Shown one piece after another: positions 42,520 through 61,422 of a stretch of 64,000 bases of DNA. The stretch lies in assembly GCF_053078305.1 (NCBI RefSeq), contig NZ_CP166879.1; one strand, 5' to 3'. The stretch's first letter is position 1. Each line of letters opens with the position of its first letter. The notes under the pieces were generated by a model. It worked only from the letters and a program-made list of their open reading frames with translations, was not told the origin of the DNA and searched no databases. The translations under genes and the position numbers were made by a program.

Positions 42520-44964
42520 TTACACCTTTTCAACCTGAACAAGGTTTGTATGTGACGGATTCCCCTTAGCGAGAGGAGACGGACGTTGAGTGGTCAGTAC
42601 GTTAATACAACCACCCTTATCGACACGTTTTGCATCCGGGTCATACCAGGCACCTTCACCCAGTGCGACCACACCCGGCATCATTCGTGGCGTCACTTTC
42701 GCCTCAATATGAACCTCACCACGATCGTTAAAGATCCTGACTTTATCGCCGTTGTGGATACCGCGTTTTTGGGCATCAAGCGGGTTGATCCACATTTCCT
42801 GACGGCAAGCCGCTTTCAGCACATCAACGTTGCCGTAAGTTGAGTGAACGCGAGATTTATAGTGGAAACCCGTAAGCTGCAGCGGATACTGTTTGTTCAG
42901 CGGATCCTGATAACTTTCAAAGCCCGGCGTGTAGATCGGCAGTGGATCGATCACATCGCCTTCTGGCAATTCCCAGGTAGCGGCAATGTCAGCCAGCGCC
43001 TGCGAATAAATCTCAATTTTGCCCGATGGCGTAGTCAGTGGGTTTGCCTGCGGATCTTCACGGAAGGCTTTATAAGCAACGTGATGCCCTTGTGGGTCGC
43101 GCTTTTTAAAGATCCCCTGCTTGCGGAACTCTTCAAACGTTGGCAGTTCAGGAATCGCTTCCCGCGACTGGGCATACAGATGCCGCATCCACTCTTCCTG
43201 TGTACGACCTTCAGTAAACTGTTGCTCAACGCCAAGACGTTTTGCCAGTTCGCTGGTCATCTCATAGATGGTCTTACATTCAAAGCGCGGTTTAATCACC
43301 TGATCGTTGAAAATCACGTAAGACATATTCCCGCAGGATGCATCCAGCGCAAAGTCCATCTGTTCGGAAGCGGTGCAGTCAGGCAGCAGGATGTCAGCAT
43401 ATTTCGCCGATGAAGTCATGTGGCAGTCGATAACCACAATCAGCTCGCACTTCTTATCATCCTGGAGGATTTCATGGGTACGGTTGATTTCAGAATGCTG
43501 GTTAATCAGGCAGTTACCGGCATAGTTCCAGATCATTTTGATCGGCACATCCAGCTTATCTTTCCCGCGCACACCATCACGCAGCGCCGTCATTTCCGGG
43601 CCACGTTCAATGGCATCGGTCCACATAAACATCGAAATGCTGGTCTGGATCGGGTTTTCCAAGGTCGGCATACGGACAAACGGTAAGCTGTATGAACCTT
43701 CACGCGCGCCGCTGTTCCCTCCATTAATACCAACGTTACCGGTCAGAATCGCCAGCATCGAGATAGCGCGAGTCGCGATTTCGCCGTTGGCGTGGCGCTG
43801 CGGCCCCCATCCCTGGCTGATAAACGCCGGTTTGGTACTGCCGATTTCACGAGCCAGTTTGATGATTTTGTCTGCCGGAACACCGGTGATTTGCGAGGCC
43901 CATTCCGGTGTTTTAGCCACGCCATCTGGCCCTTCACCCAGAATATAAGCTTTATAGTGGCCATTTTTCGGCGCACTGGCTGGCAGGGTTTTCTCGTCAT
44001 AGCCAACGCAATATTTATCGAGGAATGCCTGATCCACCAGGTTTTCGGTGATCATGACATACGCCAGACCGTTAACCAGTGCGGCATCTGTTCCTGGACG
44101 AATAGGGATCCACTCATCTTCGCGCCCGGCACCGGTGTCGGTATAGCGCGGATCGATGATGATCATGCGGGCATTAGATTTCTGGCGTGCCTGTTCAAGA
44201 TAGTAAGTCACCCCACCGCCACTCATTCGCGTTTCGCCAGGGTTATTACCAAACAGCACTACCAGCTTACTGTTTTCGATATCCGACGGGCTGTTGCCAT
44301 CTGCCCAGCCGCCGTAGGTATAGTTCAGACCTTCCGCAATTTGCGCGGAAGAGTAGTCACCGTAATGGTTCAGATAACCGCCGCAGCAGTTCATCAGCCG
44401 CGCGACCAGGGTATTTCCCGGCGGCCAGGAGCGGGTCATGGTGCCACCCAGCGTACCGGTGCCATAGTTAAGATAGATGGATTCGTTGCCGTACTCTTTG
44501 ATCAGGCGCTGCATATTGGTCGCGATGATGTCGTAGGCTTCTTCCCAGCTAATGCGCTCGAATTTGCCTTCACCGCGCGCCCCGACTCGTTTCATCGGAT
44601 ATTTCAGGCGGTCCGGATTATAGACACGGCGACGCATGGAACGCCCACGCAAACAGGCGCGAACCTGGTGCAGGCCGTCGTAATTGTCATCGCCGGTATT
44701 GTCCGTTTCGACATATTTGATTTCACCGTCCACGACGTGCATACGTAGCGGGCAGCGACTACCACAGTTAACTGTACAGGCGCTCCAGATAACCTTTTCG
44801 TCTGATTTTGTTGGAATGGCGCTATCGACAGCGTGCGCAATCCGACTAAAAGGTAATGTTAATGCGCTGCTGGCCATTGCCAGGCCGCCGATCGCTGTCG
44901 TTTTTACCAAACCACGGCGACTCACCTCAGCAGCCAATACCGCATCAGGGATTTTCGTTTTCAT
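42520..44964 (-). CDS. dmsA: DMSO reductase catalytic subunit (molybdopterin, Tat-exported)
   Basis: 814-aa ORF; twin-arginine signal (EVSRRGLVKT); molybdopterin oxidoreductase family. Confidence 0.97.
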   Translation of the reverse strand: MKTKIPDAVLAAEVSRRGLVKTTAIGGLAMASSALTLPFSRIAHAVDSAIPTKSDEKVIWSACTVNCGSRCPLRMHVVDGEIKYVETDNTGDDNYDGLHQVRACLRGRSMRRRVYNPDRLKYPMKRVGARGEGKFERISWEEAYDIIATNMQRLIKEYGNESIYLNYGTGTLGGTMTRSWPPGNTLVARLMNCCGGYLNHYGDYSSAQIAEGLNYTYGGWADGNSPSDIENSKLVVLFGNNPGETRMSGGGVTYYLEQARQKSNARMIIIDPRYTDTGAGREDEWIPIRPGTDAALVNGLAYVMITENLVDQAFLDKYCVGYDEKTLPASAPKNGHYKAYILGEGPDGVAKTPEWASQITGVPADKIIKLAREIGSTKPAFISQGWGPQRHANGEIATRAISMLAILTGNVGINGGNSGAREGSYSLPFVRMPTLENPIQTSISMFMWTDAIERGPEMTALRDGVRGKDKLDVPIKMIWNYAGNCLINQHSEINRTHEILQDDKKCELIVVIDCHMTSSAKYADILLPDCTASEQMDFALDASCGNMSYVIFNDQVIKPRFECKTIYEMTSELAKRLGVEQQFTEGRTQEEWMRHLYAQSREAIPELPTFEEFRKQGIFKKRDPQGHHVAYKAFREDPQANPLTTPSGKIEIYSQALADIAATWELPEGDVIDPLPIYTPGFESYQDPLNKQYPLQLTGFHYKSRVHSTYGNVDVLKAACRQEMWINPLDAQKRGIHNGDKVRIFNDRGEVHIEAKVTPRMMPGVVALGEGAWYDPDAKRVDKGGCINVLTTQRPSPLAKGNPSHTNLVQVEKV

Positions 44965-45263: not shown

Positions 45264-46256
45264 CTAATCGATGGACAGTTTATGGACACTTTCAGCCAGC
45301 GGATTAAAGCTGATTGCATCCTGTAAAAAGTCCGGCGAAAAATGCGCATACGTCATCGTTTGTTGAATCGTGGCATGGCCCAGGATTCGTTGTAGCGTAA
45401 CGATATTTCCGCCATTCATCATGAAATGTGTAGCGAATGTATGACGCATGACATGGGTGGCCTGCCCTTTCGGTAAGTCCGGCTTCACCTCCTGAAGGAT
45501 CTCCCGAAATCTGAGGTAATCAGCCTGGTACAACAATCCGGTTCTGCGGGTTTTAATTAACGCAAGTACCGCATCAGAAACGGGAACGGCGCGAGATTTT
45601 CCGTTCTTGGTGTTAAAGAACATCACGCGGTTACCTACAATATGTTCCCCACGTAAACCAGCTGCTTCACCCCACCTTGCCCCCGTGGAAAGACACAGAA
45701 TGGCAACACGCCGCGCATCTCCATCGAGTCGTTCAAGCAGTCGTTCAATCTCCTCATCTGAAAGAAAGGCCATCTCTGTGTTCCTGACTTTCAGCTTACG
45801 TATTCCCCGAACCGGGTTTTCGTTATGGAACACCTCACCCTCAATCAGCGAGCTGAACATTGCAGACAAGGCACACAAATCGCGGTTAATGCTGGAAGGC
45901 ATTAACCCGGCCTGTAATTTGTCGGACCGGTACCCGAGCATAAATTTTCGCGTCATCTGACTGGCACGAGGATCACCCATCTCACGGTTTATCTTTTCCA
46001 GTCTGACCCTGTAGGTATCCCCGTAATCCTGGTTACGACCATCAAGCAACCACCAGGCCTCTATCAGTTCGGATAACCGACGCTGATCTGCTGGCTTAGC
46101 CTGCCATGGCTTATCATGAAAATTCTGCAAAACATACCTTTCAAACTCCTGCGCCTTTGACTTCAGGGTAAAAATCTTACGAATCCGCTTTCCTTCCGTC
46201 CCTTGTGGCCTTACATCAACCTTATAACGTCCGTCTTTGAGTTGCTTAATCGACAT
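45264..46256 (-). CDS. int: P2-type tyrosine integrase
   Basis: 330 aa from MSIKQLKDGRYKVDVRP; strong similarity to remembered P2 Int (LSTGARWGEAA, HxxRHTFATHF, ILGHATIQQTMTYAHF); ATG with GGAGGGG Shine-Dalgarno. Confidence 0.9.
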   Translation of the reverse strand: MSIKQLKDGRYKVDVRPQGTEGKRIRKIFTLKSKAQEFERYVLQNFHDKPWQAKPADQRRLSELIEAWWLLDGRNQDYGDTYRVRLEKINREMGDPRASQMTRKFMLGYRSDKLQAGLMPSSINRDLCALSAMFSSLIEGEVFHNENPVRGIRKLKVRNTEMAFLSDEEIERLLERLDGDARRVAILCLSTGARWGEAAGLRGEHIVGNRVMFFNTKNGKSRAVPVSDAVLALIKTRRTGLLYQADYLRFREILQEVKPDLPKGQATHVMRHTFATHFMMNGGNIVTLQRILGHATIQQTMTYAHFSPDFLQDAISFNPLAESVHKLSID

Positions 46257-46325
46257 GATTAGCCCCTCCAACGGATAAATTAACCAAACACTCCCTGCGG
46301 GATGAAACCCGCTCGATGTGTAACG

Positions 46326-50766: not shown

Positions 50767-51189
50767 ATGAAGAACGTTAAGGGACTTTCAGATATTCAGG
50801 ATTTTTTTAACTGGATGTGGGCAGTGGATCCCCGGCTGGCTTCCCGCCTGAACGACTGGCACGACTATTACCGCCGCGCCTGTAAACAGGCCGCCAGACG
50901 CGTCACCACATACGGGGATTTCTCCTTCACCGTTGACGGCAGTTACCGCGTGGACGTGAAAGGCGATGGTGATGGTTTTGGTTTTGGTTTATTTCACATC
51001 AACGGAACCGACAGCACCGCCATCAGCTGGTCGTCGTCAGAGATGACGCTTGTTCTGGAAATGACAAACCACAGCGTGGCCGTGAAAGGTATATACACCG
51101 CAGAAGACTTTATCGGTGAATACCAGCGCCTTCTCGTGCTGTACCGGGCAGCGTTTCAGGCGGCAACTGCCGGGGAGTGCGACGCATGA
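50767..51189 (+). CDS. Hypothetical phage protein
   Basis: 140-aa ORF with GGAGG Shine-Dalgarno; stop overlaps the gpA start (ATGA). Confidence 0.5.
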   Translation: MKNVKGLSDIQDFFNWMWAVDPRLASRLNDWHDYYRRACKQAARRVTTYGDFSFTVDGSYRVDVKGDGDGFGFGLFHINGTDSTAISWSSSEMTLVLEMTNHSVAVKGIYTAEDFIGEYQRLLVLYRAAFQAATAGECDA

Positions 51190-53705
51190 GCGACCATAAC
51201 GCACAACTGGCGTACCCGTGGAACGCCCCGCTGCCGGTTATCGATCCTGAAACGTTCGGCAGAGCGCAACCAACCGCATTACGCCAGGCCATTCAGAGCT
51301 ACATCAACGAAGACATTCGCACTGACGCCAGACTGGATGAAGAAACCGTCGCCTTCCTGACAACCACAGACGAAGGGAAGCGAATTAATTCGCATCTTCA
51401 CCACGACGAAGAGCGTCGGATCAGACTGGAAAAACTGACGCGACACAAACGCGAAAATCCACCCACGCTGGTATCTGAAGCCATGGCAGAGCTGCGCGCC
51501 CTGCCGCCGTTTCTTGCCGGTCCGCTCATCCGTGACCTGGCCCGCCTGAGCCGCAAACAGGAGAGCGCACGCCGGGAAGGGCTTAAGAATAACAGCGCAT
51601 ATGCGGCGGATAACTTCGTTCGTCACGGCCTGCGTGCCCGCCTGAAACGTATCGCCCGTGTGAATGAACGCTTTGCCACCCCGGCCTTTAAGGCCACCGC
51701 CGCCCGCGAACGGCTGGATGAACTGCTTATGCTGCCGCAGCTGAGCCGTGACGAAATCCAGCGCCTTGCCACCCTGACCGCCACCGCGTTTTCCGCCGCA
51801 CTGGAGCGCGCATGTGATGAGGTCATCGAAAAGACCGGCAGGGGTGACGATGACCTGTTCACCTGGTTACTGACCTACCAGCCACTGGCACGCATGGCGT
51901 TAAAACTGGGTATCACACCACCCTGCTGGCCGTCGCTGGAAATCAGACCCGACCGCCGCACCGCCCCCGACCCGGAACAGGTGCCGGGTGCGGTCATGCG
52001 CCTTTCCTGTGCGACATGGTGGAACAGTCAGTTAAGACACCTCCGGGACATCTGGCGTGAAGAGCTGTTACGCGCCGCAGGTCTGGTGTCACGTAAGACA
52101 TCGGTATATATCAGCCATGAAGCGTTACTGGACTGGCGCGAAAAACGCCAGCGCACCCGCGATTTTCTGAAGGCCTGGGACATCGAGAACGAAGAGGGAG
52201 AACGGTTCAGCCTTGAGGATATCTACTGGGCAGGTCTCTCTAATCCGCGTAACCGCCGTAACGAGATGATGGCCTGCGTCCGGGGAATGGAGCAGGTCGC
52301 CGAAGCACGCGGCGACCTGGCGTTTTTCGTCACCGTCACAGCCCCTTCCCGTTTTCACAGCGTGAACGATGACGGCAGCCTGAACCCGAAATACTGCGGA
52401 GCAACGGTACGTGATGCCAGTGATTATCTGGTTTACCGCTTTTTCGCCGCCGTCCGCAGGGCCATCAACAAGGCCGGGCTGGGCTGGTACGGCGTGCGCA
52501 CAGTGGAGCCCCACCACGACGGTACACCGCACTGGCACATGCTGGTATTCACCAGCCCGGAAAACGAAGCCCGTATCACTGAAATCATGCGCAACGCCGC
52601 CATCAGGGAGGACCGCGCAGAGCTGGGTGATGATATCTCCCCGCGTTTTAAATGCGAAAAAATCGACCCGGCAAAAGGCACACCGGCGAGCTATATCGCG
52701 ACCTATATCGGTAAGAACCTGGACGCCAGCGCCTTCATGGGGAATGACCCGAAAACCGGCAAACCTTACGTCGATAAGGAATCAGGCAAAACCATGGCCG
52801 AAACCGTGGAGAACGCCATCGGCTGGGCGGCCCTTCACCGCATCCGCCAGTTCCAGTTCTTCGGTATCCCTCCCCGCCAGGTATGGCGCGAACTCCGCCG
52901 CCTTGCCGGGCAGATGGCCCGTAACCCGGCTGCCCCGCAGCGTCTGGACCATGACGACATTGACGCCATACTGGCCGCCGCCGACGTGGGATGTTTTGCC
53001 ACCTATATCACCCGCCAGGGTGGTGTGCTCATTCCCCGCAACACGTACCTGGTCCGCACCGCATACGAAACTGCCGAAGAGGCCAACGACTACGGCGAAT
53101 TCCCGCAACGCATTTACGGCGTCCGCGCCCCGTCACTCGGGGAGCGCTACACCATATGCACCCACCCGGACACCTGGAAACTGGTCAGACGTAAGCCGGA
53201 AAACGAAGACCGCACGGACGAGGGTTTTGACGTTGAGTGCGGCTTTGCCGCACCTTGGACTCGTGGCAATAACTGTCCCCCTGACCAGAATCTGACCATA
53301 AACGACCCGCCAGAAAGGCAGCCGGACGGACGCAGGGAGCAGCGACTTACCCTGCCGGAAGGTGATTTGGGTGAATGGTTAAGGTCACTGACCCCCACAG
53401 AGCGAAAACAACTCACCAGGCAGCTGAAAAACCCGCCACCTGACACGGAAACCGTGAAAAACGGCGGCATCAGTGCGCCCGCTGGCGGCGTTCGCGTGAG
53501 TGTCGCACTGACCGCTGAGCCACACATCACCGCACAAATCACCCGTGAGCTTGATGCGCTGGGCGTGCAGCTGCATGAAAGCGCCGTCGTTTCCGTCCGG
53601 CACGGTGCCCGCGTGCGCCTGGCTGACGGGCGCACCGCGTACTGGAATGACAGCACCCGCCGCATTGATATCACCCCCGCACCGAATACGGAGGCGCCAC
53701 AATGA
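51186..53705 (+). CDS. Rolling-circle replication initiator endonuclease (P2 gpA-like)
   Basis: 839 aa from MSDHNAQLAYPW (ATG with GGGGAG Shine-Dalgarno; the ORF track uses a GTG 9 nt upstream); HUH motif GTPHWHMLVF; size and position as in P2/186. Confidence 0.85.
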   Translation: MSDHNAQLAYPWNAPLPVIDPETFGRAQPTALRQAIQSYINEDIRTDARLDEETVAFLTTTDEGKRINSHLHHDEERRIRLEKLTRHKRENPPTLVSEAMAELRALPPFLAGPLIRDLARLSRKQESARREGLKNNSAYAADNFVRHGLRARLKRIARVNERFATPAFKATAARERLDELLMLPQLSRDEIQRLATLTATAFSAALERACDEVIEKTGRGDDDLFTWLLTYQPLARMALKLGITPPCWPSLEIRPDRRTAPDPEQVPGAVMRLSCATWWNSQLRHLRDIWREELLRAAGLVSRKTSVYISHEALLDWREKRQRTRDFLKAWDIENEEGERFSLEDIYWAGLSNPRNRRNEMMACVRGMEQVAEARGDLAFFVTVTAPSRFHSVNDDGSLNPKYCGATVRDASDYLVYRFFAAVRRAINKAGLGWYGVRTVEPHHDGTPHWHMLVFTSPENEARITEIMRNAAIREDRAELGDDISPRFKCEKIDPAKGTPASYIATYIGKNLDASAFMGNDPKTGKPYVDKESGKTMAETVENAIGWAALHRIRQFQFFGIPPRQVWRELRRLAGQMARNPAAPQRLDHDDIDAILAAADVGCFATYITRQGGVLIPRNTYLVRTAYETAEEANDYGEFPQRIYGVRAPSLGERYTICTHPDTWKLVRRKPENEDRTDEGFDVECGFAAPWTRGNNCPPDQNLTINDPPERQPDGRREQRLTLPEGDLGEWLRSLTPTERKQLTRQLKNPPPDTETVKNGGISAPAGGVRVSVALTAEPHITAQITRELDALGVQLHESAVVSVRHGARVRLADGRTAYWNDSTRRIDITPAPNTEAPQ

Positions 53706-54713: not shown

Positions 54714-54977
54714 TCAGGAACGCCGCGACAGTAGTTCAAGCGCATACCGGCGATCTTCCGGGCGCATGGCATCAACAAGAAACTTCACCATATTGCGACC
54801 GGAGCGGGCGCCGGGGCTGAGGGTATGGGAAAAGGTCATCGTACAGACGAAGGTGTGCCCGCATTCGACATCACTGCATGCACAGTACAGATCCGCAAGT
54901 TCAGGGGTTTTCCAGTCTGTCTTCCGGATGACAGCAGGTGCGCCACAGTCAGGACACCGGGCTTTAAAAATCCGCAT
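54714..54977 (-). CDS. Ogr/Delta-family zinc-finger late-gene transcription activator
   Basis: 87 aa from MRIFKARCPDCG...YCACSDVECGHTF, matching the remembered Ogr pattern CPxC...YxCxNxxCxxTF; GGGAGG Shine-Dalgarno. Confidence 0.75.
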   Translation of the reverse strand: MRIFKARCPDCGAPAVIRKTDWKTPELADLYCACSDVECGHTFVCTMTFSHTLSPGARSGRNMVKFLVDAMRPEDRRYALELLSRRS

Positions 54978-55014
54978 CTTACCTCCCGATAACACGTATC
55001 CCGGGGAAGACATT

Positions 55015-56067
55015 TTACCCGACCGGCACCACTTTTTCTTCCGCCACATGCCCGGCTTCCACATCAAAACGAAGATAAAGGTGTTCCGGTATATCGGGAT
55101 CGCTGTTCACGGCGTTCATGATTTTACGCTGAAGCGGTATCACCTCATCCTTGCGGTACGTTTCACGCGTCGTTTCCGGGTTAGGGATGGTGGCCCCGTT
55201 CGTGGGGATGATCCCCGCAAGACCGGCAGGAAAGCGGTGTGCCGTAAACACATCCTGGGCGCTGATCCCCTTGATGTTTGAAAATTCATCCTTGGCGCTC
55301 ACCTCACCAATCGGAATAATTTTCACCCCATCCGGCGAACCTTTGGGGATGTTGATGTACAGATTGCGGAAATTTCCCAGCCCCTTAGACTCCGCCACCT
55401 TCTCGCGGATCTCATCCTCCATCTCCGTGGTGATCCCAGGGTCGTTCGTATACAGCAAAAAGCCCATATGCGCCCCGTTGTTGTAGTAACGGCGACGAAA
55501 AAGGCTGGCCTCGCTGTTCAGCAGCGCCGAGTGAATGCCACCGATATAATCCGGCAGCCCGTAAATTTGCTGACGCGGATCATACATCCGCAGAAAGATA
55601 ATATCTTCCGGCGTATAGACCAGCGCGGGACCTTCCTGAAGCACCACGAACTCACCGGTTTTGCGGCGCCGGAGATACAGCGACGGAAGCGGCTCAAGTG
55701 CCACGACGTCGCCGAATACGTTACGCACCTTGAGCAGGGCGAGATCGCCGAACAACAGGTAGTCAAATACCGCCTGTTCCATCTGGTCCGTTGTGAGGCC
55801 ACCACCGGTATAGCCCCCCGCCACCATGTTACGGCGGGCATACAGCACCCCACCGTGCTGGGCGTTAAGGTTCGGGAGCTGCGCCAGTGCCAGGCGGTTA
55901 ATCGGCAGCTGCCAGTGGTTGTGTTCGTTGTCATACCAGATGTTATGGTAGTCCGTGCCGGTGGTCAGCACCGGTTCCGGCTGACCAAACGTGATTGTGC
56001 TGCCACGTGCGGGCGTGAATGCTTTTTTCGTCACGCGTGACGTTTTGTTTCTGCGTTTCTTGCTCAT
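55015..56067 (-). CDS. Portal protein (P2 gpQ-like)
   Basis: 350 aa from MSKKRRNK, ATGA-coupled to the terminase stop; size and position as P2 Q. Confidence 0.75.
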   Translation of the reverse strand: MSKKRRNKTSRVTKKAFTPARGSTITFGQPEPVLTTGTDYHNIWYDNEHNHWQLPINRLALAQLPNLNAQHGGVLYARRNMVAGGYTGGGLTTDQMEQAVFDYLLFGDLALLKVRNVFGDVVALEPLPSLYLRRRKTGEFVVLQEGPALVYTPEDIIFLRMYDPRQQIYGLPDYIGGIHSALLNSEASLFRRRYYNNGAHMGFLLYTNDPGITTEMEDEIREKVAESKGLGNFRNLYINIPKGSPDGVKIIPIGEVSAKDEFSNIKGISAQDVFTAHRFPAGLAGIIPTNGATIPNPETTRETYRKDEVIPLQRKIMNAVNSDPDIPEHLYLRFDVEAGHVAEEKVVPVG

Positions 56068-57890
56068 GCGGCTTTCCCGAAGGCCCATGTGGACGGGCGT
56101 TCATAGTCATAATCTACAGGCTCATTAATCACGGCGTGCGAAATGGCAAAAAACACATCCGCATGCCCCGTAACATCCGACCGTTCCGCCACGAACGTCA
56201 GCGCGTTACCGCTTTTTGTGGTGGTGCGGCGTATGGACATGAACGACGCGGGGATCTCCGTGCGTTCACGGCTGGCCTCATCAATGGCGTCTTTCGCCCA
56301 CTCGATACGCTTATGGGCCACCACGTCTATCATTTTCATCACCAGGCGGTTTTTGCTCTCCACGCTGTAAAGAATGGCGTTAGCCTCACGTGGCGCAAAG
56401 CGACTGACGATATCAAACACCCCTTTCCCGATACCGGTGATATCTATGCCGATATAGGTAATGTTAAAGCGCTGCATCAGTTCGCGGATCTGATCGGCCT
56501 GCCAGGTGAAGTTAAATCCCTGCCACTGCCAGACGGCGAGTACACGGAACCGCTCGCCCTCATGGACAGGCGGAGCCACAATCACAAACGTGGAATTATC
56601 CCCGGACCTTGACGGGTCAAAGCCCGCCCATACCTCACGATTGCCGAACGGACGTGCCGCCGTGGGATCGTAGTCACCCCACGTCTCCATCTCCACCTCG
56701 CACCTGACCAGTTCGGAGAACTTAAATACCGCATCCTTGCTGTCAACAAACTCGCAGCCGTACAGCATCGCATAGGTGGTCGGGTTGTAGCGGTTCCTGA
56801 TACGTTCAATATCAACCCGTGCAGACAGGCCACCCGCCACCGCCTCTTCCAGCCGGATAATGTAGCGCCAGATCCCGTCAGGGCATTCACAGCCCACACG
56901 CATCGCGCTTTCTTTCGGAAACTCAACCGCACGACGCGCCGGGTCATCCCCGCGCCAGTCGTCACCATTCCAGACCAGATAAGCCTGGTGGGTTTTGGCG
57001 CTGGGTGTGGAAAAATACGTCGTGCGGTATTTGTCGTGGGTCGCCATTGCCGAGGCCACTTCATGCAGTCGCGTGAATTTTGGGATCCAGAACACCTCAT
57101 CGCCGTAAAGGTGGCCGTTAAATCCCTGGGCGGTGCTGACATTGGTGGACAGGAAGCGCAGCATTGCACCATTGCTCAGACGGATATGCTTACCCGTGAG
57201 CGTGATCCCAAACTGCAGGGCGAAGTTAATAATATATTCACGAAAGATTTCCGCCTGTACCCGTGACGCAGAAAAGAAAATCTGGTTATCACCGGTCACC
57301 ACCGCATCTTCGAACGCTTCCCATGCAAAATACCAGGTCATGCCGATCTGGCGGCTCTTGAGGATGAAACGGCGCTCACGGTGCCGGTTCTCGCGGCAGT
57401 GCAGCTGGTAGGCATAAAGATTTTTACGCGCCCATTCATCCAGCATTTCAGCAGTCAGTCCGGAAACGTCGTTTTTCCGGTAGCGCCGCTTTTTCCCTTC
57501 TCCCCCGCCGCAGGTCCCCGCAGCCGCGCCGTCCTCATACCCTGCCGGACGCAGGGCGGCAATTTCCGCCATCCTTTCAGCGTGTTTGTTTTTCTGGGCG
57601 ATGATCTTCACGTGCTGCGCGATAAGTTCACGCAGTTCGGCAAGTTCACACTCTGTCTTGCCCTCCCGTCCGGTCAGCACATCAATACGCCGGGCGATCA
57701 CGTCCTCAACGGATTCAGCGGGCAGCAGGGCGGCCCACTGCCCCACATCACACCAGTGGTAAACCGTGCGCGGCGGAATACCGAGTTCCGCCGCAATATC
57801 GCGGGGGTGCCACCGCTTCAGGTAAAGCGATCGCGCCGCCTCTTTGATTTCGTCAGAATATTTAGCCATGCGCCCATTATGGCGGCGCAT
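56064..57890 (-). CDS. Terminase large (ATPase) subunit (P2 gpP-like)
   Basis: 608-aa ORF directly upstream of the portal gene, divergent from the scaffold/capsid genes as in P2; exact start uncertain. Confidence 0.8.
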   Translation of the reverse strand: MRRHNGRMAKYSDEIKEAARSLYLKRWHPRDIAAELGIPPRTVYHWCDVGQWAALLPAESVEDVIARRIDVLTGREGKTECELAELRELIAQHVKIIAQKNKHAERMAEIAALRPAGYEDGAAAGTCGGGEGKKRRYRKNDVSGLTAEMLDEWARKNLYAYQLHCRENRHRERRFILKSRQIGMTWYFAWEAFEDAVVTGDNQIFFSASRVQAEIFREYIINFALQFGITLTGKHIRLSNGAMLRFLSTNVSTAQGFNGHLYGDEVFWIPKFTRLHEVASAMATHDKYRTTYFSTPSAKTHQAYLVWNGDDWRGDDPARRAVEFPKESAMRVGCECPDGIWRYIIRLEEAVAGGLSARVDIERIRNRYNPTTYAMLYGCEFVDSKDAVFKFSELVRCEVEMETWGDYDPTAARPFGNREVWAGFDPSRSGDNSTFVIVAPPVHEGERFRVLAVWQWQGFNFTWQADQIRELMQRFNITYIGIDITGIGKGVFDIVSRFAPREANAILYSVESKNRLVMKMIDVVAHKRIEWAKDAIDEASRERTEIPASFMSIRRTTTKSGNALTFVAERSDVTGHADVFFAISHAVINEPVDYDYERPSTWAFGKAA

Positions 57891-58035
57891 CCGGCCCGCA
57901 TTCAGGCAGAAAATTTCGGCTGTGTTCGGCTATCCCGCGTTATCCGAAGACAGCCGAATTCAGCCAGTAGCCCCCCGCTGTAAAAATCCCGACACTCACC
58001 GGAGTTCTTCAGATTTTCACGTAAAAGAGGCCACG

Positions 58036-59085
58036 ATGCCGCAGCCAACGTTGATGACCGACTGGATATGTATCGCCACATCAGGACCGACCGTTGACGG
58101 CCGCGAAATTGATCCGCAGTGGCTGACTGATGCCGCTGAAACCTATTCCCGCAACACCTACACGGCGATGCTGTGGCCCTGGCATGAGGAAGAAATCGGA
58201 CACCGCCAGTACACCAGTAATCTGGGTGAAGTGGACTCACTGAAAGCGGAAACCGGCGAGGACGGTAAAACCCGCCTCTACGCACGGCTGGTCCCTAACC
58301 AGTACCTGATTGAAGCCAACAGACTGGGGCAGAAGCTGTTCACATCCGCCGAGATAGTGGAGAACTTCGCCCGGAGCGGACGCGACTATCTCCTGGGCGT
58401 GGCGGTGACGGATATCCCCGCCAGTCTGGGGACGGAAAAAATCCGCTTCACCCTGAACAACGAGGAATACACGGCACAGCGGGCGAACTGCCAGACGTTC
58501 ACGCTGGGCAGCCTGTCACCGGACACCTCCCCGCCCCCCCGTAAACCTGAATCATTCCTGAAACGCCTGTTCAGCGCAGGACAGACCGACAACACCGACA
58601 CCAGTAAGCCTGATACAGGCGAGGACGCAAAAATGGACGAAATTAAAGCACTGCTTGAAAAGCTGATCACCCTGGTGGAAGGCGGCAGCGCCGCTGCCGC
58701 TGGCGAGGGCACAGCAGACACACCGGAAGAAGCAAAAGCCGAAGTCGCGGAAATCGCCGCCGAAATCGCCGATGCCGCCGCAGAGGTGGCAGAACTGGCA
58801 GAAGAAGTGGAAGCCGCCCCGGAAGATGAGGTTAAGGCTGAAGCCTTCAGCGCCGCGAAAGCGAAGCTGGAAGACGCGATTAAAGCGTTCAGTGCCATCA
58901 CACCGGAAAAAGGCGAACGTTACCGCCGCTTTGCCGCCCGTCGCCGGGACGACACCGACAAAGAAGAAATCAAAGCTATTGCCGAAAAACTTAACGACCT
59001 GACCACGAAGCTGTCAGCAACCGGCATCACGCCACGACCGGCTGGCACACCGGCAGAAAGCGAAAAACCGTTTGACTTTGTTTAA
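58036..59085 (+). CDS. Capsid scaffolding protein (P2 gpO-like)
   Basis: 349 aa from MPQPTLMTDW with AAGAGG Shine-Dalgarno; LLGVAVTDIPASLGTE resembles P2 gpO LVGLAVTDDPASLGTE; Ala/Glu-rich helical C-terminal half. Confidence 0.75.
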   Translation: MPQPTLMTDWICIATSGPTVDGREIDPQWLTDAAETYSRNTYTAMLWPWHEEEIGHRQYTSNLGEVDSLKAETGEDGKTRLYARLVPNQYLIEANRLGQKLFTSAEIVENFARSGRDYLLGVAVTDIPASLGTEKIRFTLNNEEYTAQRANCQTFTLGSLSPDTSPPPRKPESFLKRLFSAGQTDNTDTSKPDTGEDAKMDEIKALLEKLITLVEGGSAAAAGEGTADTPEEAKAEVAEIAAEIADAAAEVAELAEEVEAAPEDEVKAEAFSAAKAKLEDAIKAFSAITPEKGERYRRFAARRRDDTDKEEIKAIAEKLNDLTTKLSATGITPRPAGTPAESEKPFDFV

Positions 59086-59096
59086 GGACACGCAAC

Positions 59097-60125
59097 ATGC
59101 AACTGAACCAGAAAACCGAATCACTGCTTCGTAAGTACGCTGCCGGACTGGGCGCGGCAAACGGGGTTGACGACGTCACACGCTATTTTGCGCTGTCTGA
59201 CCCGAAGGAGACCGCGCTGCGTGACGCCATCATGCACTCCGACGAGTTTTTATCAAAACTGCCGAACGTGCTGGATGTTGAACAGGTGACAGGCCAGGTG
59301 GTTACCACCGGCGTTCCGGGCCTCCATACCGGACGTAAAAAAAATGCCCGTTTCACCCTTCCGCTGGGTGTTACCGGGAATGAATACAAGCTGGCTGAAA
59401 CCGATTCCGGTGCCCACCTCCTGTACACCACACTGGTCACCTGGGCAAACGCAGGCGGTGAAAACGAGTTCTTTAACCGCATTCAGAATTTTGTTAACAG
59501 ACAGATCGCGCTGGATATCCTGCGCATCGCCTTTAACGGTACCAGCGTGGCCGAAGATACCGACCCGGTAACCAACAAAAACGGCGAGGACGTCAACACC
59601 GGCTGGCATGCCATCGTCAAAGGCCGCAGCGCAAAACAGATCGTGGAGGCTGGCCCGACGCTGGGCAAGGGTGGCGACTTTATCGGGCTGGATGCAGCCG
59701 TGGCAGACCTCGTGCACACCCTCATTGATGAGTCGTATCGCGGTCATCCGGATCTGGTGGTACTGGTTGCGCCCGATCTTGTGGCACAGGACAAGGTGAC
59801 GCTGCTTAACGCCATCGACGCCCCCACGGAAAAAGTGGCCGCGCAGCTTATCGGTCGCCAGATCGCCGGGCTGACAGCATACACCCCGCCGTTCATGCCG
59901 GAAGGACGCCTGATTGTCACCACGCTGGCAAACCTTCACATCTACACGCAGCGCGGCACCCGTCAGCGCCGTGCGGAGTGGAACGACGATCGCAAGCGTT
60001 TTGAAAACAACTATCTGCGCATGGAAGGTTACGCCGTGGAGCACGACGAAATTTACGCGGCCTACGACAAGCTGACCATCAAGGGCGCAGAAGCGGCAGA
60101 AGAGCCCGCATCTGGCGGCGCATAA
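59097..60125 (+). CDS. Major capsid protein (P2 gpN-like)
   Basis: 342-aa ORF; GKGGD...LDA and HPDLVVLV motifs resemble P2 gpN; position after the scaffold gene. Confidence 0.8.
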   Translation: MQLNQKTESLLRKYAAGLGAANGVDDVTRYFALSDPKETALRDAIMHSDEFLSKLPNVLDVEQVTGQVVTTGVPGLHTGRKKNARFTLPLGVTGNEYKLAETDSGAHLLYTTLVTWANAGGENEFFNRIQNFVNRQIALDILRIAFNGTSVAEDTDPVTNKNGEDVNTGWHAIVKGRSAKQIVEAGPTLGKGGDFIGLDAAVADLVHTLIDESYRGHPDLVVLVAPDLVAQDKVTLLNAIDAPTEKVAAQLIGRQIAGLTAYTPPFMPEGRLIVTTLANLHIYTQRGTRQRRAEWNDDRKRFENNYLRMEGYAVEHDEIYAAYDKLTIKGAEAAEEPASGGA

Positions 60126-60142: not shown

Positions 60143-60841
60143 ATGACACCCTGCCAGCGACACCGGGCGAAAATCCGCACACAGGAGGCACTCGAACGCC
60201 GGGAGGCGCTGACGGCCTCCCCGGTCAGCTTCCACCTGTTACGCGCGGAGCTTGATCGCGATGTGGCACGGCTGCGCAGTCTTCCGGTCCGTGAAGAGCG
60301 GCTGGCGTTCAAGCGCGACATTCTCCTGCCGCGCTGGCTGCCCGTCGCGGAGCGCTATATCGCTGACGGAAAGCGCCACGCCTGCCCGGTACTGGTGTAC
60401 TGCATCATCTGGCTGTTCGACACGGGCGACCTGAGTCGCGCCCTTGACTGGGCAGACATTGCCATCAGTGAAGGCCAGGCCACGCCGGACAACTTCCGCA
60501 GCACCCTGCCCGCCTTCGTGGCAGACACGGTGCTGCAGTGGGCCACCGACAACAGCGAGGCCGGACACAGCATAGAACCGTATTTTTCGCGCACCTTCAG
60601 GAACGTCACCACCTCGTGGCGGCTGCATGAGGAAATCCGCGCGAAGTGGTTCAGATTTGCCGGGCTGTATCTTCTGCGCGACGAGGCGGGCAAACCGAGA
60701 GCCACCGCGATTAATGATACTGCCGTACTGGAAAAGGCAGACGCATACCTGGCACAGGCGGCAGCACTGAGCCGTACCGCTGGCGTAAAAAGTATCAGGG
60801 CGCGCATCAGGGCACGCATCAGCGCCCTTAATGCAGCGTAA
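60143..60841 (+). CDS. Terminase small (endonuclease) subunit (P2 gpM-like)
   Basis: 232-aa ORF after the capsid gene with AGAGGG Shine-Dalgarno; gene order. Confidence 0.7.
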   Translation: MTPCQRHRAKIRTQEALERREALTASPVSFHLLRAELDRDVARLRSLPVREERLAFKRDILLPRWLPVAERYIADGKRHACPVLVYCIIWLFDTGDLSRALDWADIAISEGQATPDNFRSTLPAFVADTVLQWATDNSEAGHSIEPYFSRTFRNVTTSWRLHEEIRAKWFRFAGLYLLRDEAGKPRATAINDTAVLEKADAYLAQAAALSRTAGVKSIRARIRARISALNAA

Positions 60842-60948
60842 ACGACTACCCGCAGGGCCGGGCGGGCGCGGGAGGAGGCATCAGTGACGGAAACTGTATG
60901 GCCGTGGAATCCCGGACAGCCCGCCTTTTTATTCATATGAGGCACGTC

Positions 60949-61422
60949 ATGAGCGAACCGAGCTTCAGCGTCAGCGGTAAACCGCTGAAATCCACACCGC
61001 AGACGGTGACAAACGGCGAGCCGTTCTGGCCGGACCTTAATCTGGCTGAGCTTCAGGGGTCACGCACGCTTCCGGCTGATTTACCCGACGACACGGCGGC
61101 CATGGCGCTACTTGCCGCAGTGGCCGAGGTAAACACCACGCTGGCGCCGGTTGTGGCGCACTGGAAGGCGCAGGGGCATGAACGCGCCGCAGACGTACCG
61201 GGGGCCAGGCTGGGCGATGAAACCCAGCTGGTCGCACAGTACAAAAAGGCCGTTTATGCCCGTGCCAAGGCCGATCTTATGGGCGAGTTCGCCACCATTG
61301 GTCGCCGTGAAACCTATCCGGGGCAGGAAAGCGAGGACACACGCGCCACCTTACTGGCTGAAGCCTCGCTGGTCATGCGTAACATGCTGGGGCACAGACG
61401 CGCGGGAGTGCACATTATATGA
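60949..61422 (+). CDS. Head completion/stabilisation protein (P2 gpL-like)
   Basis: 157 aa from MSEPSFSVSG; WPDLNLAEL...AVAEVN...YKKAVYARA resembles remembered P2 gpL. Confidence 0.65.
   Translation: MSEPSFSVSGKPLKSTPQTVTNGEPFWPDLNLAELQGSRTLPADLPDDTAAMALLAAVAEVNTTLAPVVAHWKAQGHERAADVPGARLGDETQLVAQYKKAVYARAKADLMGEFATIGRRETYPGQESEDTRATLLAEASLVMRNMLGHRRAGVHII

Follow-up and report, generated by a model that had tools for sequence, protein, structure and literature searches.

The gene at 58036-59085 of the window, i.e., of the whole 64,000-nucleotide stretch analysed, is in all likelihood a gpO-type gene for head assembly, carried by a P2-like prophage (Peduoviridae, Irrigatiovirus-like) that resides in the chromosome of E. 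coli. Its product would belong to a long-form subfamily that combines a protease, a linker, and a scaffolding domain with an acidic module; the assembly mechanism proposed below is a likely one, drawn by analogy with P2 gpO. Translation probably also starts in frame within the gene, at Met200 (ATG 58633), which would yield a 150-aa scaffold-only protein. We lean, not strongly, towards the view that the gpO gene consists of two nested genes here as well as in Irrigatiovirus-like long forms, K139, phi3, and many metagenomic lineages, and that P2, being devoid of the internal start, is the atypical member. The nested start is the sole potentially new element, the domain family and the length being already known. 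The protein family, its annotation, and its lineage-normal long form are those of an ordinary prophage head gene.

The gene and its surroundings in the window comprise the following elements.

58036-59085, plus strand: full gpO-family gene, 349 aa plus stop, recognized by the open reading frame and its translation and by Pfam, PHROG, and RefSeq matches
58025-58030, plus strand: Shine-Dalgarno sequence AAGAGG of the full-length gene, 5 nt before ATG 58036, with an anti-Shine-Dalgarno duplex of -5.8 kcal/mol
55015-56088, minus strand: portal gene, a neighbour in the head module
56064-57890, minus strand: large terminase gene (TerL), divergent from the gpO gene
59097-60125: P2-family major capsid protein gene, directly downstream of the gpO gene
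60143-60841: small terminase gene (TerS), a neighbour in the head module
60898-61422: gpL gene, a neighbour in the head module

Around 58036-59085 the order of the P2-type head module (Q and P divergent; O, N, M, L) is thus present. The protein matches Pfam PF05929 (Phage_GPO) over residues 9-266, scoring 152.3 bits where the gathering threshold is 33.6 (E 2.7e-44). It also matches PHROG 73, 'head scaffolding protein', with E 4.3e-67, and PHROG 11933, 'head maturation protease', over residues 6-144. RefSeq contains a 99.8%-identical E. coli gene of equal length labelled 'GPO family capsid scaffolding protein', which lies in a P2-like prophage of E. coli 04-00955 flanked by dmsA and serS. An earlier reading made from the sequence alone (hereafter the sequence-only reading) had named the product a gpO-like scaffold. 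The Pfam score, PHROG 73, and the P2-type head cluster bear this out, and the label is correct as far as it goes; it is incomplete, since the protein is also a predicted prohead protease (D21/H50/S104). The start was set at 58036 and not at 57844, where a longer, TTG-started open reading frame begins, because every homologue begins with MPQ or MTQ at the position of 58036; the longer frame is unsupported.

The opposite strand carries an unbroken frame of 171 codons (58386-58901, minus strand), and the signal might belong to this frame as a real gene overlapping gpO. Such an assignment is improbable in the extreme: the antisense product, a low-complexity Ser/Ala sequence, mirrors the Ala/Glu codons of the sense strand and matches no Pfam or PHROG family. 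The sense frame is backed by hundreds of homologues whose substitutions are conservative. Conservation specific to the antisense frame, with changes silent on the minus strand but altering the plus-strand protein, was not seen.

The N-terminal half of the gpO protein is divided as follows.

58036-58470, plus strand: protease domain, residues 1-145; AlphaFold2 (AF2) pLDDT 93-98 over residues 11-130, and a match to PHROG 11933
58096-58098, 58183-58185, and 58345-58347, plus strand: catalytic-triad candidates D21, H50, and S104, respectively, from the alignment to P2 D19/H48/S107
58471-58623, plus strand: linker, residues 146-196, Pro/Thr/Ser-rich and variable, predicted to be disordered except for a short helix at 174-178

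This N-terminal part is a predicted prohead serine protease with D21, H50, and S104 as its putative catalytic residues. All three are invariant in alignment A1; in the 122-sequence alignment, H50 and S104 do not vary, and the conservation of D21 is at least 90%. Chang et al. reportedly assigned D19 and H48 as catalytic residues of P2 gpO in 2009. The S107A variant of P2 gpO is a protease-dead mutant (PMC7552001). The linker (residues 146-196) is poorly conserved, with many gaps in the alignments, and its AF2 pLDDT falls below 50 at residues 146-163 and 181-197. No sequence relatives of the window protein were found in the PDB. A Foldseek search of the PDB yielded nothing significant: the top match was the HCMV protease (E 0.08), and the C-terminal half drew talin/catenin helical bundles. 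No assemblin fold is claimed on this basis.

The sequence-only reading had put the protein at about 65 aa longer than P2 gpO. This proved accurate, as P2 gpO has 855 nt and 284 aa in the phage collection, and the window protein has 349 aa. It had further called the protein an unusual length variant, which holds only against the family as a whole and fails within the Enterobacterales clade. Among the 120 nearest protein clusters (90% identity), 92 have a length of 340-370 aa. Homologues of equal length (343-366 aa) align at 100% query coverage and come from clusters of more than 10 genera of this clade, i.e., Escherichia, Salmonella, Citrobacter, Enterobacter, Serratia, Yersinia, Erwinia, Pectobacterium, Photorhabdus, Providencia, and others; a single E. 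coli cluster has 606 members. Among isolated phages the closest is Salmonella phage SW3 (Irrigatiovirus), with an open reading frame of 353 aa, and viral contigs contribute 33 further complete genes encoding 349-356 aa. An exhaustive family search gave 1126 gpO representatives. For the 138 sequences of at least 250 aa among the best 150 of these 1126, the median length is 294 aa (interquartile range 285-304), and 13 of the 138 (about 9%) have at least 335 aa. An independent 345-aa gpO is published for Burkholderia phage KS14 (PMC3091744). The long form is therefore standard for its phage lineage and a minority form family-wide. Equal-length homologues as the common form had been named beforehand as the outcome that would speak against an unusual length; this is the situation in the clade, so the long form is not unusual in its lineage. 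The length statistics were taken from protein-cluster searches because tblastn against isolated phages lost the C-terminal half, which was masked by low-complexity filtering and divergence; no match in that search covered at least 80% of the query.

The C-terminal half, residues 197-349, is predicted to be all-helical and would act as an internal scaffold, a role transferred from P2 gpO. The AF2 model, built on the 122-sequence alignment, places helices at residues 197-220, 230-260, 265-286, and 309-328. Its parts are listed below.

58633-58833, plus strand: acidic module, residues 200-266, clade-specific, comprising helix 197-220, a Gly/Ala loop, the acidic helix, and an NPEDEV motif
58723-58815, plus strand: Ala/Glu-rich helix, residues 230-260, amphipathic, net charge -10, AF2 pLDDT 75-85
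58746-58771, plus strand: a 12-nt unit in 2.2 copies (CGCCGAAATCGC), encoding AEIAAEIA, reported by Tandem Repeats Finder
58828-58893, plus strand: helix, residues 265-286 (EVKAEAFSAAKAKLEDAIKAFS), from AF2 and aligned by hhalign to the first helix of short-form scaffolding domains
58894-58959, plus strand: Arg-rich disordered linker, residues 287-308 (..ERYRRFAARRRDD..), AF2 pLDDT below 50 at 290-307
58960-59082, plus strand: last helix, residues 309-328, and C-terminal tail (..TPRP..P..KPFDFV), from AF2 and from hhalign in both modes

When the C-terminal domain is modelled alone, AF2 returns the same helices with a pLDDT of 62, and because of this low confidence no tertiary fold is claimed for it. 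Pfam, PHROG, and NCBIfam searches with this domain returned nothing useful. The last helix has five of its five LIVMF residues at a/d heptad positions, and P335, P339, and the tail motif are conserved. This helix and the tail are presumed, by analogy, to be the capsid-protein-binding end. The Arg-rich linker is found in nearly all long forms and is the main source of their length spread of 343-372 aa.

The Ala/Glu-rich stretch, including the string AEIAAEIADAAAEVAELAEEVEAA quoted in the sequence-only reading, is present in the protein as described there. Residues 226-285 contain 35% Ala and 23% Glu with a net charge of -13. The term low-complexity is right as to composition, the Shannon entropy being 2.1 bits in the 231-260 segment vs. 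about 3.7 bits in the N-terminal half; it is misleading in that the stretch is conserved across genera. Tandem Repeats Finder reports only the 12-nt unit in 2.2 copies, thus the stretch is not a repeat array, and no copy-number variation of this unit was seen among close relatives. All six LIVMF residues of helix 230-260 occupy a/d positions of the heptad, and none occurs at the 22 other positions. This pattern in the predicted helix fits a coiled coil or a helical bundle, and the earlier suggestion of a helical region consistent with a coiled coil is upheld to that extent. In 34 diverse long forms, the stretch follows the pattern EVAxIAEEIADAAxEVAELAxEVAxNPEDEV with its hydrophobic and Ala positions conserved. 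At residues 223-258, no substitutions occur in E. coli relatives of 91-99% identity, and across genera this stretch belongs to the best-conserved portions of the C-terminal half. Judged by this conservation, the stretch is compositionally simple yet under constraint.

A slippage-generated, neutral low-complexity insertion into a tolerant coiled-coil region would also produce the compositional bias, the entropy of 2.1 bits, and the 12-nt unit behind AEIAAEIA, and scaffolding proteins in general tolerate sequence drift. We nevertheless consider a neutral origin very unlikely. Residue-level conservation extends across genera at 40-55% overall identity and includes the a/d hydrophobics, IADAA, and NPEDEV. 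In close E. coli relatives the stretch changes neither in length nor in sequence, and the only indel among them, +TDN at residue 183, lies in the linker that follows the protease. Length differences among long forms fall in the Arg-rich linker, outside the stretch, and the charge of the stretch is compensated by the rest of the scaffolding domain.

As to where the extra residues of the long form sit, the domain boundary lies about 200 aa from the N-terminus in long and short forms alike. The scaffolding domain itself is bimodal in length, about 100 aa in short forms vs. about 150 aa in long forms. In global mode, hhalign places the whole 109-aa short-form domain on domain residues 67-150 of the long form (probability 51%, E 2.4e-5), pairing EDE-M-TKEQF with EDE-V-KAEEF. 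In local mode, competing registers appear in the middle of the domain, and the last helix and the tail align robustly in both modes; because of the rival registers, the correspondence is firm for the C-terminal ~40 aa only. With modest confidence, the alignments suggest that the extra ~65 aa are the acidic module, residues 200-266, placed before an ancestral two-helix scaffolding domain. The module has a net charge of -17 in the window protein and a mean of -17.1 over 87 long forms. The post-module remainder averages +9.2, so that the long-form domain totals -7.9, and short-form domains have a mean of -8.6.

P2 gpO provides the framework for a mechanism: its domain map is published, its protease trims the capsid protein, the portal, and itself, and its C-terminal domain is the internal scaffold (PMC7552001). 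By analogy, the helical C-terminal domain of the window protein would self-associate and co-assemble with the major capsid protein encoded directly downstream, giving a procapsid. The protease would then trim the capsid protein, the portal, and the scaffold, and the scaffold fragments would leave, as transferred from P2. The acidic helix may add an oligomerisation surface and may pair electrostatically with the clade-specific Arg-rich segment. Together, the acidic module and the Arg-rich segment could keep the scaffolding domain at a net charge of about -8, the level of short forms. In the window protein itself, the post-module remainder is only +2 vs. about +9 on average, which weakens the charge-pairing idea here. 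Finally, initiation at Met200 would supply a protease-free 150-aa scaffold in excess over the full-length protease-scaffold.

The candidate internal start consists of two elements.

58621-58625, plus strand: GAGGA, candidate internal Shine-Dalgarno sequence, 7 nt upstream of ATG 58633, duplex -7.3 kcal/mol
58633-59085, plus strand: candidate nested in-frame open reading frame from Met200, encoding a putative scaffold-only protein of 150 aa, 15.9 kDa, and pI 4.5

At -7.3 kcal/mol, the internal duplex is as strong as, or stronger than, most of those scored at the starts of neighbouring head genes (-3.5 to -8.8 kcal/mol). Met200 lies at the boundary where the disordered linker ends and a helix begins at residue 197. 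The conservation of the site was assessed in samples ranked by similarity to the query and thus biased to relatives of the window protein: M occupies the Met200 column in 113 of 122 relatives, and the DNA of the exceptions reads GTG in four cases, TTG in one, and ATG two codons upstream in one, the site being absent from three, including P2. Of 98 unique viral-contig genes, taken with the same bias, 72 have ATG at the site and 12 have GTG; the remaining 14 lack it. Of 84 homologous genes, 49 have GAGGA before the site at a spacing of exactly 7 nt. A Shine-Dalgarno core at 5-10 nt is found in 24 of 29 lineages defined at 70% identity, vs. 10.9 expected from synonymous resampling (P about 6e-9, an approximate value that treats lineages as independent); the background of such cores is 4% per in-frame codon. 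Gene by gene, the anti-Shine-Dalgarno duplex is not individually significant against synonymous recodings (p 0.07-0.9), and only the lineage count is significant. In all 29 lineages, the mRNA is predicted to fold more weakly at the site than on average over the gene (mean z +1.08).

It is possible, if somewhat doubtful, that the gene makes a single polypeptide as in P2, with Met200 as a conserved hydrophobic helix cap and GAGGA as a by-product of needed acidic residues or a translational pause site. P2 gpO does work as one chain and without the site, which is likewise absent from the other P2-type C-terminal domains, those of phiX216, RSY1, 3LV2017, ESSI-2, Mannheimia phiMhaA1, and Smp131. A peptide rich in E, D, and G fairly often yields a Shine-Dalgarno-like sequence, as the resampled mean of -5.1 kcal/mol vs. 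the observed -5.9 kcal/mol illustrates. Neither a nested product nor an internal start for gpO homologues was found in annotation or in the searchable literature, a body that does not extend to the P2 gpO studies of Chang et al. (2008, 2009). However, a hydrophobic cap would allow L, I, or F and any Val codon, and the site is ATG, GTG, or TTG in 119 of 122 relatives. In viral contigs, Val occurs at the site 12 times and is encoded by GTG each time, vs. 26% GTG among the other Val codons of the same 12 genes. Among 12 Val-site sequences with 31-81% identity, the 11 whose site residue aligns in the column all have GTG. As a same-codon control in the 12 sequences, not one of the 13 four-fold columns that are fully conserved is restricted to a single codon as the Val site is, and the conserved Val266, an ordinary Val, uses GTC, GTT, and GTG. 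The excess of Shine-Dalgarno cores over the 10.9 lineages expected and the locally unfolded mRNA in every lineage also argue against a single product. We retain initiation at Met200 as the preferred reading. A profile search for stand-alone scaffold proteins with the alignment of the long C-terminal domain gave three matches within a candidate limit that low-complexity sequences had filled.

There are precedents for a scaffold that is translated in frame inside a protease gene, namely lambda C/Nu3, Mu I/Z, and herpesvirus UL26/UL26.5, and the window gene has the same sequence hallmarks. In herpesviruses, the start of the UL26.5 scaffold is nested inside the UL26 protease gene. The nested scaffold of lambda C/Nu3 is said to have been described by Shaw & Murialdo in 1980. 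A nested in-frame scaffold start is also documented for Mu I/Z (PMC4378225). Since the internal start of these systems is in frame, the protease carries the C-terminal targeting region of the scaffold. The lambda, Mu, and herpesvirus proteases belong to families different from that of gpO, and the nested scaffold in gpO is a candidate predicted from sequence.

The gene as such, a recognisable and annotated prophage head gene in its lineage-normal form, matters little. The domain map of the long form, with its acidic heptad module, Arg-rich linker, and conserved net charge, offers testable hypotheses on scaffold self-association. If the internal start is real, many Peduoviridae would use a single gene to produce protease and scaffold at a fixed ratio, like lambda, Mu, and herpesviruses. 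The P2 model, with a protease on every scaffold copy, would become the exception. Genome annotation would be affected, as a coding sequence would be missing from the annotation of thousands of prophages, and so would the practice of generalising from the results on P2/P4 assembly.

To our knowledge, P2 gpO is the only member of the family that has been studied experimentally. P2 gpO belongs to the same Pfam family, and its gene lies likewise between a divergent large terminase gene and the capsid gene. It also shares the architecture of an N-terminal protease with an aligned triad, a flexible middle part, and a helical C-terminal scaffolding domain from residue ~195-200. The minimal P2 scaffolding fragment comprises residues 195-284 (PMC7552001), and the position of Met200 corresponds to the start of this fragment. 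On the other hand, the two proteins are 25% identical overall and 39% identical over residues 7-139, and their C-terminal domains are not reliably alignable. The P2 domain has about 90 aa vs. 150 aa in the window protein. It is devoid of the acidic Ala/Glu module, the Arg-rich linker, and a start-like codon with a Shine-Dalgarno sequence at the domain boundary.

The short 'M-type' gpO proteins of about 280-310 aa, such as those of Vibrio phage K139 (orf17) and Pseudomonas phage phi3, have the same protease, last helix, and tail as the window protein. Their boundary motif, acidic-acidic-x-x-M/V-[TND]-K-E-Q-F with a Shine-Dalgarno sequence, is shared with the long forms. Unlike the window protein, they have a two-helix domain of about 100 aa and lack both the 67-aa acidic module and the Arg-rich linker.

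The gpO proteins of SW3 and of the Enterobacterales prophages (~350 aa) resemble the window protein closely, being 50-92% identical and 343-366 aa long with the same architecture throughout. These long forms share the Ala/Glu helix, NPEDEV, the Arg-rich linker, the ..KPFxFV tail, and the boundary Met with its Shine-Dalgarno sequence. As compared to the SW3 type, the linker (ERYRRFAARRRDD) is less basic in the window protein and in its relatives from E. coli, with a remainder of +2 vs. about +9, and their Shine-Dalgarno sequence is GAGGA at 7 nt vs. GGAG at 5 nt. As a separate observation, the deposited annotation of the gpO-type gene of SW3 begins too late.

At least two types of C-terminal scaffolding domain (C-domain) occur in the gpO family, as seen from the comparison of L002, L128, L130, L132 and other loci with L125, L126 and L001, and the protease domains can be aligned throughout. 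The P2-type C-domain reads ..ARLNDVHEAV.. or ..ERFADVREAV.. and has no start-like codon at the boundary between the linker and the scaffolding domain. The second, which we call the 'M type', is characterized by the pattern acidic-acidic-x-x-M/V-TKEQF, with a start-like codon present at this boundary. Between the sets of short and long C-domains, the scaffolding domain turned out to differ little in net charge, -8.6 for the short forms vs. -7.9 for the long forms. The long forms keep this value despite an added module with a charge of -17, since their remainder is Arg-rich, at +9. This suggests that the total charge of the scaffolding domain is under selection.

The reading frames of two homologues are as follows:
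L001:4001-5062 (MK972714.1 12634-13695), scaffolding protein ORF of Salmonella phage SW3, 353 aa, with the conserved N-terminus MPQSHYRTDW...
L029:3001-3612 (IMGVR_UViG_2504756088_000008), frameshifted gpO homologue, reading frame closing after 203 aa

The deposited SW3 coding sequence starts at L001:4058 and encodes 334 aa. This start is probably too late, truncating the protease domain, since the ORF with the conserved N-terminus begins 57 nt earlier. The L029 homologue closes in an unrelated tail, ..LISPPRATEKKWKN*, and its tblastn match still spans residues 1–349; it is a frameshift, which reflects a pseudogene or an error in sequencing.

Opposite the Ala/Glu region of the gene under study lies a further reading frame:
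58386-58901, minus strand, antisense ORF of 171 codons with a Ser/Ala low-complexity product

It has no match in Pfam or PHROG and was rejected as a gene, being a mirror artefact of GCN/GAR codons.

A Foldseek search of the PDB with the full-length AF2 model of gpO gave human cytomegalovirus protease (2wpo_A) as the best match, which is not significant (E 0.08, probability 0.72). A nested scaffold ORF, for which gpO has a candidate, is present in herpesvirus assemblin genes, and this makes the match, non-significant as it is, intriguing.

The closest complete genome for comparison of the prophage is that of E. coli 04-00955. It allows the left prophage end to be placed, the region covering about 42520-64000 of the window:
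42520-44964, minus strand, dmsA, from this comparison
45264-46271, minus strand, phage integrase ORF, next after dmsA
51177-53705, replication endonuclease ORF
54714-55067, minus strand, Ogr/Delta-like zinc-finger ORF, immediately before the portal gene
56064-56088, minus strand, 25-nt overlap of the large-terminase and portal ORFs when the latter is read from its first ATG

The related portal gene is slightly shorter in the RefSeq annotation, at 1053 nt. The related prophage of E. coli 04-00955 stops before serS, and it includes:
L116:32781-34841, tail-fibre gene, split in the annotation into two pseudogene fragments

After this prophage come two genes of the Hok/Gef family, and the tail-fibre and Hok/Gef region corresponds to DNA past the window end.
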